Below the pieces are notes generated by a model, which was not told the origin of the DNA, searched no databases, and saw nothing but the letters and a program-made list of their open reading frames with translations. 64,000 bases of DNA, taken from the NCBI RefSeq assembly GCF_041248615.1, contig NZ_CP158426.1, one strand, 5' to 3'. The position numbers were made by a program, and so were the translations under genes. The DNA comes from Escherichia coli. Lineage in GTDB: Bacteria > Pseudomonadota > Gammaproteobacteria > Enterobacterales > Enterobacteriaceae. Of this stretch, positions 1,817 to 54,510 are shown in pieces. Position 1 is the first letter of the stretch; the number at the start of each line of letters is the position of its first letter.

Positions 1817-1990
1817 ATCAGGCTCCGGAGAATTGGGGCCGTCCCCGGTGAAAAGAGGCGTTTGCAGGTCGTCCTGCAAAGCTGATGGTTGAACGGATAT
1901 TTTGCCAGGTGGCAGGGGAATTTCAACTATTACCTTTGTGACTATCGCAAAAAAACAAACGGCACGACATAACTGTCGTACCGTTATTGC

Positions 1991-4061: not shown

Positions 4062-4295
4062 CTGATTAAACAGGGAAGTTTAATCTTTGCACGTTGCATA
4101 ACCTTTAATTATTCATATACATTGCTGTTATTACTTTTTATATAACCAACACCAATAATTAACCTTTCTTTTCTGTTTATATAGAGTGAGCACGGCTATT
4201 TATGTTATTTTAACAACTATTACTACCAAGCCCATTTATCTGGCTTATAAATTAAAATTAATTATTTAATTGAGAAATGGTTAGGGAGAACCTAC

Positions 4296-4364
4296 ATGGC
4301 CATAAGCATCAAGGGTGTTAATACCGGTGTTATTCGCAAGAGCAATAATTTCATTGCACTGGCG
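4296..4364 (+). pseudogene. yjeJ: yjeJ 5' fragment (first ~23 codons), separated from the rest of the gene by IS1
   Basis: ATG at 4296 then MAISIKGVNTGVIRKSNNFIALA; the frame continues after IS1 at 5133 (…LKIKEPRNKESLFFLSVMEL…). Confidence 0.7.
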
Positions 4365-4379
4365 GGTAATGACTCCAAC

Positions 4380-4883
4380 TTATTGATAGTGTTTTATGTT
4401 CAGATAATGCCCGATGACTTTGTCATGCAGCTCCACCGATTTTGAGAACGACAGCGACTTCCGTCCCAGCCGTGCCAGGTGCTGCCTCAGATTCAGGTTA
4501 TGCCGCTCAATTCGCTGCGTATATCGCTTGCTGATTACGTGCAGCTTTCCCTTCAGGCGGGATTCATACAGCGGCCAGCCATCCGTCATCCATATCACCA
4601 CGTCAAAGGGTGACAGCAGGCTCATAAGACGCCCCAGCGTCGCCATAGTGCGTTCACCGAATACGTGCGCAACAACCGTCTTCCGGAGCCTGTCATACGC
4701 GTAAAACAGCCAGCGCTGGCGCGATTTAGCCCCGACGTATCCCCACTGTTCGTCCATTTCCGCGCAGACGATGACGTCACTGCCCGGCTGTATGCGCGAG
4801 GTTACCGACTGCGGCCTGAGTTTTTTAAATGGCGGAAAATCGTGTTGAGGCCAACGCCCATAATGCGGGCGGTTGCCCGGCAT
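4380..4883 (-). CDS. insB: IS1 transposase InsB (expressed as InsAB' fusion by -1 frameshift)
   Basis: 167-aa ORF matching IS1 InsB. Confidence 0.9.
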
Positions 4884-5077
4884 CCAACGCCATTCATGGC
4901 CATATCAATGATTTTCTGGTGCGTACCGGGTTGAGAAGCGGTGTAAGTGAACTGCAGTTGCCATGTTTTACGGCAGTGAGAGCAGAGATAGCGCTGATGT
5001 CCGGCAGTGCTTTTGCCGTTACGCACCACCCCGTCAGTAGCTGAACAGGAGGGACAGCTGATAGAAACAGAAGCCAC
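4802..5077 (-). CDS. insA: IS1 InsA repressor/transposase N-terminal protein
   Basis: 91-aa [46 protein letters not shown]… matches IS1 InsA. Confidence 0.9.
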
Positions 5078-5132
5078 TGGAGCACCTCAAAAACACCATC
5101 ATACACTAAATCAGTAAGTTGGCAGCATCACC

Positions 5133-5942
5133 GCACTGGCGCTGAAAATTAAAGAGCCTCGCAATAAAGAATCGTTGTTCTTTCTGTCTGTCATGGAACT
5201 GCGCGACCTTCTGATTGCGCTGGAAAGCCGTTTGCATCAAAAGCATAAACTGGATGCTGCTGCACGCCTTCAGTATGAGCAAGCTCGCGATAAAGTCATT
5301 AAGAAAATGGCAGAAAATATCCCAGAAATTCTGGTTGATGAGCTTAAAAATGCCGATATTAATCGTCGGGTTAACACGCTGGAACTTACCGATAATCAGG
5401 GTGAAAATCTTACCTTCGTATTAACGCTACATGACGGTAGCAAATGTGAATTAGTCATCAATGAATTGCAGATTGAAATGCTGGCGCGAGCAATCATTCA
5501 TGCAATTAATAATGCGGAAATGCGTGAACTGGCATTACGTATTACCTCACTGTTAGATTTCCTACCGTTATACGATGTTGACTGCCAGGACAATGGCAAT
5601 CTGGAATATGACACCTATTCCCAACCGGAATGGAAACATAACTTGTTCAACCATTATCTGGCGGTGCTTTACCGCTTTAAAGATGAAAGTGGCAAAGAAC
5701 AATTTAGCGGCGCAGTGGTGAAAACGCGTGAAGCAACGCCGGGTAAAGAAGTGGAGGCGATCACTCGACGAATGCTTGATTTCAGCCCACGACTGAAAAA
5801 ACTCGCGGGTGTACCATGTCAGGTCTATGTTCGCACCGTAGCGGCAAATAACGCCCAACCGCTAACCCAGGATCAATGCTTACGCGCGCTACATCACTTA
5901 CGTGTTCAATCCACCAGCAAAACTGCACCACAGGCGAAATAA
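5133..5942 (+). pseudogene. yjeJ: yjeJ 3' portion (about 266 codons) downstream of the IS1 insertion
   Basis: Frame continuous with the 4296..4364 fragment once IS1 and one copy of the 9-bp duplication are removed; ORF track shows only 5175..5942. Confidence 0.7.
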
Positions 5943-16526: not shown

Positions 16527-16602
16527 GCCCGGATAGCTCAGTCGGTAGAGCAGGGGATTGAAAATCCCCGTGTCCTTGGTTCGATTCCGAGTCCGGGCAC
16601 CA
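16527..16602 (+). tRNA. pheU: tRNA-Phe (GAA anticodon)
   Basis: Sequence gcccggatagctcagtcggtagagcaggggattgaaaatccccgtgtccttggttcgattccgagtccgggcacca read directly; cloverleaf and CCA end present. Confidence 0.97.
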
Positions 16603-27332: not shown

Positions 27333-28597
<1,265 letters not shown>

Positions 28598-28754: not shown

Positions 28755-30386
28755 ATGAGACATTCATTGCCCTACCGCATGTTACGCAAACGTCCGATGA
28801 AATTGAGTACCACAGTGATCTTAATGGTCAGCGCGGTACTGTTCTCGGTGCTATTGGTGGTGCATCTGATTTACTTCTCGCAAATCAGTGATATGACGCG
28901 AGACGGGCTAGCCAACAAGGCACTGGCGGTGGCGCGTACCCTCGCCGACTCGCCGGAAATCCGTCAGGGCTTGCAGAAAAAACCGCAGGAGAGCGGCATC
29001 CAGGCCATCGCGGAAGCCGTGCGCAAACGCAACGATCTGCTGTTTATTGTCGTTACCGATATGCAAAGTCTTCGCTACTCGCATCCTGAAGCCCAGCGTA
29101 TTGGTCAGCCATTTAAAGGTGATGACATCCTTAAAGCGCTGAATGGCGAAGAAAATGTCGCTATCAATCGCGGTTTTCTGGCGCAGGCTTTACGCGTATT
29201 TACCCCCATCTACGATGAAAATCATAAGCAAATTGGCGTGGTGGCGATCGGCCTTGAGTTAAGCCGCGTGACCCAACAGATCAATGACAGTCGCTGGAGC
29301 ATTATCTGGTCGGTATTATTTGGCATGCTGGTCGGACTGATTGGCACCTGCATTCTGGTTAAAGTATTGAAAAAAATCCTTTTCGGCCTGGAACCCTACG
29401 AAATCTCCACGCTGTTTGAGCAACGCCAGGCCATGTTGCAGTCCATCAAAGAAGGCGTCGTTGCCGTGGACGATCGCGGCGAGGTCACGCTGATCAACGA
29501 TGCCGCACAAGAATTGCTGAATTACCGTAAGTCGCAGGACGATGAGAAGCTGTCGACGCTAAGCCACTCGTGGTCACAGGTAGTAGATGTCTCGGAAGTG
29601 TTACGCGACGGTACGCCGCGCCGCGACGAAGAGATTACGATTAAAGACCGGCTATTACTGATCAACACCGTTCCGGTGCGCAGTAATGGCGTTATCATCG
29701 GTGCCATTTCAACCTTCAGAGACAAAACTGAAGTACGTAAACTGATGCAGCGACTCGACGGTCTGGTCAACTATGCTGACGCACTTCGTGAACGATCCCA
29801 CGAATTTATGAATAAATTGCATGTGATTCTCGGATTATTGCATCTGAAGAGTTATAAGCAGTTGGAAGATTACATTCTCAAAACAGCCAATAACTATCAG
29901 GAAGAGATTGGCTCTCTGCTGGGTAAGATCAAATCTCCGGTTATCGCTGGTTTTTTAATCAGCAAGATTAACCGCGCGACCGATTTAGGCCATACGCTGA
30001 TTTTAAACAGTGAAAGCCAACTGCCAGACAGCGGCAGTGAGGACCAGGTCGCGACGCTGATTACCACATTGGGAAATCTGATAGAAAACGCGCTGGAAGC
30101 ATTAGGGCCGGAACCCGGAGGCGAAATTAGCGTAACATTGCACTACCGTCACGGCTGGCTGCACTGTGAAGTTAACGATGATGGACCGGGGATCGCACCC
30201 GACAAAATCGATCACATTTTTGACAAAGGTGTCTCGACAAAAGGAAGCGAGCGAGGCGTCGGTTTAGCACTTGTCAAACAACAGGTAGAAAATCTCGGCG
30301 GCAGCATCGCCGTGGAATCGGAACCCGGGATTTTCACACAATTTTTTGTCCAGATACCCTGGGACGGGGAGAGGTCGAACAGATGA
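28755..30386 (+). CDS. dcuS: C4-dicarboxylate sensor histidine kinase DcuS
   Basis: 543-aa ORF MRHSLPYRMLRKRPMKLSTTVILMVSAVLFSVLLVVHLIYF…. Confidence 0.95.
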   Translation: MRHSLPYRMLRKRPMKLSTTVILMVSAVLFSVLLVVHLIYFSQISDMTRDGLANKALAVARTLADSPEIRQGLQKKPQESGIQAIAEAVRKRNDLLFIVVTDMQSLRYSHPEAQRIGQPFKGDDILKALNGEENVAINRGFLAQALRVFTPIYDENHKQIGVVAIGLELSRVTQQINDSRWSIIWSVLFGMLVGLIGTCILVKVLKKILFGLEPYEISTLFEQRQAMLQSIKEGVVAVDDRGEVTLINDAAQELLNYRKSQDDEKLSTLSHSWSQVVDVSEVLRDGTPRRDEEITIKDRLLLINTVPVRSNGVIIGAISTFRDKTEVRKLMQRLDGLVNYADALRERSHEFMNKLHVILGLLHLKSYKQLEDYILKTANNYQEEIGSLLGKIKSPVIAGFLISKINRATDLGHTLILNSESQLPDSGSEDQVATLITTLGNLIENALEALGPEPGGEISVTLHYRHGWLHCEVNDDGPGIAPDKIDHIFDKGVSTKGSERGVGLALVKQQVENLGGSIAVESEPGIFTQFFVQIPWDGERSNR

Positions 30387-35627: not shown

Positions 35628-37140
<1,513 letters not shown>

Positions 37141-47135: not shown

Positions 47136-48227
47136 ATGCGTTTTCTGCGCCGACCAATATCGCTGCGCCAACGGCTGATATTGACCATCGGGGCCATTTT
47201 GTTGGTGTTTGAGCTGATCAGCGTCTTCTGGCTATGGCATGAAAGTACCGAGCAGATTCAGCTGTTTGAGCAGGCGCTACGCGACAATCGCAACAACGAT
47301 CGCCACATCATGCGTGAGATCCGCGAGGCGGTCGCCAGCCTGATCGTCCCCGGCGTCTTTATGGTCAGCCTGACTCTATTTATCTGCTATCAGGCGGTAC
47401 GCCGCATCACCCGGCCGCTGGCGGAGCTGCAAAAAGAGCTGGAAGCGCGCACCGCCGACAACTTAACGCCTATTGCCATTCACAGCGCCACCCTCGAAAT
47501 CGAAGCGGTGGTTTCGGCGTTGAACGATCTGGTCAGTCGCCTGACCAGCACGCTGGATAACGAAAGGTTGTTTACTGCTGACGTCGCGCACGAACTGCGA
47601 ACGCCACTGGCGGGGGTGCGTTTGCATCTGGAACTGCTGGCGAAAACGCATCACATTGATGTAGCACCGTTAGTGGCACGGCTTGATCAGATGATGGAGA
47701 GCGTCTCCCAGCTGCTGCAACTGGCGCGTGCCGGACAGTCATTTTCTTCCGGGAATTATCAACATGTAAAACTGCTGGAAGATGTCATTCTCCCCTCGTA
47801 TGACGAACTCAGTACCATGCTCGACCAGCGACAGCAAACCCTGCTATTGCCAGAGAGCGCCGCCGACATCACCGTTCAGGGTGATGCAACCCTGCTGCGG
47901 ATGTTATTGCGAAACCTGGTAGAAAACGCCCATCGTTACAGCCCGCAAGGCAGCAACATTATGATTAAGCTGCAAGAAGATGGCGGAGCGGTCATGGCCG
48001 TTGAAGATGAAGGACCGGGTATTGATGAGAGTAAATGCGGGGAGTTGAGTAAAGCGTTTGTACGTATGGACAGCCGTTATGGCGGGATTGGTCTGGGGTT
48101 AAGTATTGTCAGCCGCATTACACAGTTGCATCACGGGCAGTTTTTCCTGCAAAACCGGCAAGAGACTTCCGGCACGCGGGCCTGGGTACGGCTGAAGAAA
48201 GATCAGTACGTGGTAAACCAGATATAA
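47136..48227 (+). CDS. basS: Sensor histidine kinase BasS (PmrB)
   Basis: ORF 47127..48227 (track starts at TTG); ATG at 47136 gives a 363-aa kinase (MRFLRRPISLRQRLILTIGAILLVFELISV…). Confidence 0.9.
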   Translation: MRFLRRPISLRQRLILTIGAILLVFELISVFWLWHESTEQIQLFEQALRDNRNNDRHIMREIREAVASLIVPGVFMVSLTLFICYQAVRRITRPLAELQKELEARTADNLTPIAIHSATLEIEAVVSALNDLVSRLTSTLDNERLFTADVAHELRTPLAGVRLHLELLAKTHHIDVAPLVARLDQMMESVSQLLQLARAGQSFSSGNYQHVKLLEDVILPSYDELSTMLDQRQQTLLLPESAADITVQGDATLLRMLLRNLVENAHRYSPQGSNIMIKLQEDGGAVMAVEDEGPGIDESKCGELSKAFVRMDSRYGGIGLGLSIVSRITQLHHGQFFLQNRQETSGTRAWVRLKKDQYVVNQI

Positions 48228-48292
48228 AGAAAGCTGCTGACCACCAGCACGCTGAACACGGTAGTTAAACTTTCATAAACACGGTTTTTCAT
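48203..48292 (-). CDS. pmrR: Small membrane protein PmrR (29 aa), antisense-overlapping the 3' end of basS
   Basis: Hand translation of minus strand from ATG 48292: MKNRVYESLTTVFSVLVVSSFLYIWFTTY*; preceded by GGAGGAGAG and a PmrA box; not in ORF track. Confidence 0.75.
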   Translation of the reverse strand: MKNRVYESLTTVFSVLVVSSFLYIWFTTY

Positions 48293-48336
48293 TGCACTCT
48301 CCTCCGTTAACCTGGAGGAGAGTATGCGCGTCAGAG

Positions 48337-48353
48337 ATTAAGTGAACCTTAAG
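48337..48353 (-). promoter_or_regulatory. PmrA (BasR) box CTTAAG-N5-CTTAAT upstream of pmrR
   Basis: Reverse complement of 48337-48353 reads cttaag gttca cttaat, the same motif as upstream of eptA; 45-60 bp upstream of pmrR ATG. Confidence 0.6.
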
Positions 48354-48400
48354 ACTTCAATTGGCCTGATAAGACAGCGTCTCAGGCCATCCGTTTCAGC

Positions 48401-54020: not shown

Positions 54021-54510
<490 letters not shown>

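Follow-up and report, generated by a model that had tools for sequence, protein, structure and literature searches.

The yjeJ locus and its interruption

The window, that is, the whole 64-kb stretch of Escherichia coli DNA analysed here, carries efp, epmB, yjeJ, yjeI and groL in an order that is unchanged on both sides of an IS1 insertion in yjeJ. An AT-rich spacer between epmB and yjeJ (4062..4295, plus strand, recognised in the composition profile) contains the native yjeJ promoter region, and the GC content just upstream of the gene, over positions 4100-4299, is 27%. The gene lies on the plus strand in two parts: a 5' fragment of codons 1-23 (MAISIKGVNTGVIRKSNNFIALA; 4296..4364), annotated by PGAP as a partial pseudogene 'missing C-terminus', and a 3' fragment of codons 24-289 with the stop codon (5142..5942), delimited from the open reading frames and by excision. 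IS1 stands directly after codon 23, leaving 266 codons downstream, and excision bore out the split that an earlier note on this DNA had read from the sequence.

Flush with both IS1 ends is a perfect 9-bp direct repeat, GCACTGGCG, as that note had also described. The left copy (4356-4364) is codons 21-23 of yjeJ (Ala-Leu-Ala), and the right copy (5133-5141) was verified by script. The match stops at 9 bp and extends on neither side. For two fixed positions, the probability that 9 bp agree exactly by chance is 4^-9, or about 4e-6; elsewhere in the 64-kb window the 9-mer occurs one further time, at 28920.

In-silico removal of IS1 together with one repeat copy restored a single open reading frame of 289 amino acids, running from the ATG at 4296 to the TAA at 5940-5942, so that the frame is continuous across the site as had been claimed. 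The rebuilt protein matches the Pfam family PF15922 (YjeJ-like) with 579 bits against a cut-off of 27, from its residue 1 and over profile positions 1-283 of 283, and shows zero amino-acid differences from the E. coli 042 protein WP_001008025.1. In strain 042, yjeJ is annotated from the same ATG with a 289-aa product, and the empty site reads ...TTCATTGCACTGGCGCTGAAAATT..., with the 9-mer in single copy; compared with the rebuilt window sequence it differs by 1 nucleotide in 1,574 bp. Since the profile match begins at residue 1 and the 042 gene uses the same ATG, yjeJ does not naturally start downstream of the insertion, which was one of two findings that would have spoken against a true interruption; the other, a missing repeat or truncated IS1 termini, was not found either.

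Little is suggested by homology about the function of YjeJ. No relative was found in the PDB below E=0.05, no NCBIfam family model and no PADLOC defence model matched, and a single-sequence AlphaFold2 model, made to see whether the lost N-terminus is structural, reached a mean pLDDT of 43.8 and a pTM of 0.34, too low to be of use. In K-12, yjeJ is dispensable and was deleted merely as a linked marker (PMC10679819).

Anatomy of the IS1 element

The IS1 copy occupies positions 4365-5132, exactly 768 bp by script check, and its transposase genes lie on the minus strand. The element is complete, with both termini intact, in agreement with the earlier description, and its assignment as IS1B-type is based on length, ends, identity to IS1B copies and the PGAP label, which reads IS1-like element IS1B family transposase with programmed frameshift. 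The element starts with GGTAATGACTCCAACTTATTGAT (IRR) and ends with ...ATCAGTAAGTTGGCAGCATCACC, the reverse complement of IRL GGTGATGCTGCCAACTTACTGAT. The right (4365..4387) and left (5110..5132) terminal inverted repeats, 23 bp each, are imperfect and agree at 18 of 23 positions, and an outward -35-like TTGGCA lies inside IRL at 5119-5124 on the plus strand. Length and ends fit the pattern of the IS1 family (GGTRATG...CCAACTTA...TGAT; about 768 bp, with repeats of about 23 bp).

The InsAB' transposase frames span 4380..5077 on the minus strand, as supported by open reading frames, Pfam, the rebuilt fusion and NCBIfam. In the ORF list, insA runs from 5077 to 4802 and encodes 91 aa, and the insB frame runs from 4883 to 4380, both on the minus strand and antisense to yjeJ, as had been noted before; the Pfam matches are Zn_ribbon_InsA and HTH_Tnp_IS1 for insA and DDE_Tnp_IS1 for insB (PF03811, PF12759 and PF03400). 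The A6C motif (AAAAAAC) for -1 programmed frameshifting lies intact at 4820..4826 on the minus strand, corresponding to canonical IS1 nucleotides 307-313, and is present in one copy only within the element. A -1 shift at this motif yields a 232-aa InsAB' fusion, which scores 243.8 bits against the NCBIfam equivalog transpos_IS1 (NF033558; cut-off 100).

A consensus scan found one promoter-like site near the IS1 ends, an inward sigma-70-like promoter within IRL on the minus strand (CTGCCA-16-TATGAT, 5125..5098), which sits where the known insA promoter, pIRL, is expected. Many E. coli chromosomes and plasmids contain IS1B-type copies that match this one at 768/768 positions, and the element shows all the defining features of IS1 that are testable in silico. 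With its intact ends and reading frames, and with 100% identity to widespread copies, it appears to be of the active type.

Other features of the window

The 64-kb window contains no second IS1 copy. An IS3-family element, called ISEc31 by PGAP, lies at 27340-28597 (+) between yjdI and dcuS. It is bounded by inverted repeats of 26 nt (27340-27365 and 28572-28597) and encloses an Rfam match to the isrC sRNA (27408-27530, 150 bits). The melibiose:sodium transporter gene melB (35628-37038, minus strand) is annotated as a frameshifted pseudogene. Between yjdM and yjdN, five tandem naRNA4 units (CssrE, REP-derived) follow one another at 100-bp spacing (54025-54502, plus strand; Rfam 90-111 bits). 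Two known features were found at their expected places, a Guanidine-II riboswitch upstream of sugE (1834-1880, minus strand) and the sRNA STnc630, which overlaps pmrR (48196-48361, minus strand). Downstream of dicD, a tRNA-Phe gene (16527-16602, plus strand) has no island attached, and cadC follows about 600 bp further on; the tRNA gene is presumably pheU, a classic integration site of pathogenicity islands.

Provenance and frequency of the junction

Every base of the 64-kb window agrees with positions 4835546-4899545 of the E. coli NRZ14408 chromosome (NZ_LT599825.1). By the title of its genome paper, NRZ14408 is reportedly a carbapenem- and colistin-resistant clinical isolate. In a search of 5,426 complete E. 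coli genomes, either IS1-yjeJ junction was contiguous in NRZ14408 only (1/5,426). The rebuilt 1,574-bp empty site, by comparison, was covered to at least 80% in 5,340 of the 5,426, and among the matches listed, all those besides NRZ14408 (39/39) gave a single uninterrupted empty-site match at 99.9% identity. With a 25-kb query over the site, meant to order the nearest relatives, genomes that have unrelated IS1 pieces nearby rose in the ranking, which was therefore uninformative.

The junction extends beyond the complete genomes, as 10 contigs from other NCBI assemblies also encode the chimeric 271-aa product that reads across it. Two of these 10 contigs were read and carry a junction sequence identical to that of the window, one being 5,345,375 bp long (5.35 Mb) and the other a draft contig that starts within IS1 and continues through the junction. 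The junction may be common to re-sequenced or clonal isolates, and in its exact form it offers a handy clonal marker for the NRZ14408 lineage.

These contigs also bear on whether the assembler misplaced IS1 at yjeJ. IS1 is multicopy, and eight or nine places in the chromosome record match IS1-bearing queries, so that a misplacement is conceivable in principle; against it stand the exact 9-bp duplication at both ends, which is the signature of real transposition, and the recurrence of the same junction in other NCBI assemblies. Since the junction is base-identical in independent assemblies, an assembly artefact has a negligible probability, and the insertion is regarded here as a real transposition.

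Recurrent IS1 insertion at yjeJ and target preference

IS1 has entered this locus repeatedly. Junction searches returned 12 and 6 genomes for the orientation of the present copy, this genome included (11 and 5 others), and 18 and 18 genomes, in overlapping sets, for the opposite orientation. At least 14 distinct IS1 sites were mapped in or just upstream of yjeJ. Counted in nucleotides from the yjeJ ATG, those in the orientation of the present copy are at +69 (this one), +120, +309, +562, +621, -60, -177 and -258, and those in the opposite orientation at +79, +89, +93, +109, +404 and -84. Six of the events fall within yjeJ nucleotides 69-120, and about 30 events are estimated across the locus. 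The insertions at -60, -84, -177 and -258 lie in the spacer, and several upstream ones leave yjeJ intact. Each mapped copy other than the present one has its own 9-bp duplication in 12 of 13 cases, the exception being +79 in strain 3PT.

In strain 3PT (NZ_CM137004.1; positions 1661-2428 of the locus sequence) the oppositely oriented IS1 at +79 is not flanked by a target duplication, and next to it about 290 bp of yjeJ are deleted, which looks like an IS1-mediated adjacent deletion. A separate case is the draft contig DABXCB010000090.1 (GCA_014827175.1), which ends at AGAGCCTCG, yjeJ nucleotides 81-89, equivalent to window position 5153. The strain has the 042-like base at window position 5768, and the contig break hints at another independent IS insertion. 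In KH_005, IS1 is likewise found at nucleotides 81-89, with a one-base-variant duplication, AGAACCTCG.

Insertion frequencies were set against controls by the same chimeric-query design on four other regions of the window. IS1 was found in 18 genomes at yjeJ (GC 38-43%), in 0 genomes at dtpC and 0 at yjeH (GC about 50% each), in 27 genomes at the AT-rich cadC-cadB region (GC about 37%) and in 12 at the AT-rich adiA-adiY region (GC about 37%). A yjeJ-specific IS1 hot spot seemed plausible after the counts of 0 and 0 for dtpC and yjeH, and was rejected after the AT-rich controls returned 27 and 12. Since the AT-rich controls were hit as often, a general IS1 target preference is involved rather than a yjeJ-specific effect.

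The same figures bear on a proposal that loss of yjeJ is adaptive, in which selection for knock-outs, and not target preference, would lie behind the large number of independent IS1 insertions. Such selection could account for the at least 14 mapped sites in both orientations, for the six within nucleotides 69-120, and for junction counts of 12, 6, 18 and 18 genomes as compared with none for dtpC and yjeH. It is harder to reconcile with cadC-cadB and adiA-adiY, which were struck as often or more, with the insertions upstream that spare the gene, and with an empty-site query covered to at least 80% in nearly all genomes (5,340/5,426). Furthermore, that IS1 prefers A/T-rich DNA is already established, for which PMC9330008 cites Zerbib et al. 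(1985). Adaptive loss is thus considered highly improbable. A composite version, in which 5'-end knock-outs of yjeJ, a conserved gene, would be a selected loss in some lineages, with the NRZ14408 allele as one instance and, secondarily, the 3' fragment re-expressed from a hybrid promoter, is also judged very unlikely. Instead, the four controls indicate that the recurrence at yjeJ follows from the A/T preference of IS1 as predicted, helped by the dispensability of the gene, and that selection specific to yjeJ is not needed. On a small scale they also show cleanly how natural IS1 insertions cluster in AT-rich segments (about 37-38% GC) of the E. coli chromosome.

The 3' part of yjeJ and its annotation

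In RefSeq, PGAP places a coding sequence over the 3' part, R2K29_RS23730 (WP_192459808.1), a 'YjeJ family protein' of 271 aa at 5127..5942 on the plus strand, and attaches no pseudogene flag to it. The start codon assigned to it is an ATC that belongs to the final 6 bp of IS1. The frame that leads into the 3' fragment has an in-frame TAA at 5115 and is open from 5118; the first canonical in-frame starts are the TTG at 5175 (Leu35) and the ATG at 5193 (Met41), with no ATG, GTG or TTG before 5175. A product from either of these two starts would be YjeJ minus 34-40 N-terminal residues. No purine-rich Shine-Dalgarno sequence was found upstream of ATC 5127, TTG 5175 or ATG 5193.

Transcription into the fragment from IS1 itself deserves consideration. 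The inverted repeat of IS1 has been described as containing a -35 box that faces outward (PMC8764528), and IS1 creates hybrid promoters where a suitably positioned -10 box follows (PMC8764528; PMC9330008). The outward TTGGCA of IRL matches the -35 consensus at 5 of 6 positions, and at spacers of 16-18 bp the sequence behind it matches the -10 consensus at only 2-3 of 6. A 19-bp spacer leads to GAAAAT, which agrees with TATAAT at 4 of 6 positions, for a total of 9/12 with a non-optimal spacer. The pairing that defines an IS1 hybrid promoter, an outward -35 with a good -10 at 16-18 bp, is therefore absent here, and the consensus scan returned no plus-strand promoter-like site at or near the IRL junction. 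The earlier note had reserved a place for an outward IS1 promoter acting with an internal start; this caveat was legitimate in kind, given the outward -35, and finds little to sustain it in the poor -10 at 16-18 bp and the in-frame starts devoid of Shine-Dalgarno sequences.

Stated in full, the alternative is that the insertion rewires yjeJ, so that its 3' 249-271 codons are made as an N-terminally altered YjeJ, through a hybrid promoter of IS1-IRL and target or through read-through, with initiation at ATC 5127, TTG 5175 or ATG 5193. The TTGGCA and GAAAAT boxes, the documented hybrid promoters of IS1, the frame open from 5118 and the unflagged 271-aa coding sequence are all compatible with it. 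Nevertheless, the 19-bp spacer lies outside the usual 16-18 bp, and a transcript from the putative hybrid promoter would begin downstream of ATC 5127. ATC is moreover an extremely rare initiator codon, 0 of 3 candidate starts has a Shine-Dalgarno sequence, and PGAP flags both yjeJ halves as pseudogene in genomes where IS1 lies deeper. Rewired expression is accordingly rated very unlikely, and a silent 3' fragment is preferred.

The 'intact' 271-aa coding sequence of RefSeq is probably an annotation artefact. The call most likely stems from the length of the fragment, because deeper IS1 insertions have both halves flagged. The chimeric sequence of WP_192459808.1 can find its way into protein databases, where it is probably already spreading, and it is present on the 10 contigs given above.

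Origin and consequence of the insertion

The observations are very probably explained by a young, simple IS1 transposition that gave a null allele of yjeJ, an insertion pseudogene. A model can be proposed in which an active-type IS1 inserted, in a single simple transposition, into codons 21-23 of the chromosomal yjeJ in the NRZ14408 lineage, and in which the target GCACTGGCG would have been duplicated during transposition. The general preference of IS1 for AT-rich, dispensable DNA would suffice for the choice of target, and a locus-specific explanation would not be needed. The unchanged gene order and the intact duplication point to a single simple transposition that was not followed by recombination between IS1 copies, so that nothing would have been rearranged since.

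As for age, the earlier note had called the event relatively recent, and the comparisons agree with it: the event seems young because the junction occurs in 1/5,426 genomes, IS1 identity is 768/768, the flanks differ from 042 by 1 nt, and the rebuilt protein is unchanged relative to 042.

The insertion sets the promoter, the ribosome-binding site and codons 1-23 apart from the 266 codons that follow, and by this separation yjeJ is predicted to be a null allele. Judged from the sequence, yjeJ expression would be lost, presumably with no phenotype. In conclusion, the locus holds an ordinary strain- or clone-specific IS1 insertion pseudogene that is already visible in public annotation. Little is at stake, as this is the strain-specific pseudogenisation of a dispensable, uncharacterised gene in a clinical E. 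coli isolate.

Comparison with known IS1 insertions

Compared with known IS1 hybrid promoters (Prentki et al. 1986; afaA in ST131, PMC8764528; acrEF; blaTEM), the same outward -35 box faces the downstream sequence at yjeJ. The known cases combine it with a well-spaced -10 and with an intact downstream gene that has its own translation start. In yjeJ, unlike those cases, the -10 at 16-18 bp is poor, and both the start codon and the ribosome-binding site have been lost to the 3' part.

As an element, the copy corresponds to known IS1 of the IS1B type in length, terminal repeats, insA/insB' frameshift, 232-aa transposase and 9-bp duplication, and differs only in location. Insertions in E. coli PCN033 (+109), BL12 (+120), 2017.02.03CC (+309), 22F46 (+621) and KH_005 (+89) show that IS1 also splits yjeJ into pseudogene fragments in other strains, each time at another position and in both orientations, while the +69 site with GCACTGGCG is confined, among complete genomes, to NRZ14408. 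Of these alleles, only that of NRZ14408 has a 3' fragment (271/289 codons by PGAP) long enough to be annotated as 'intact'.
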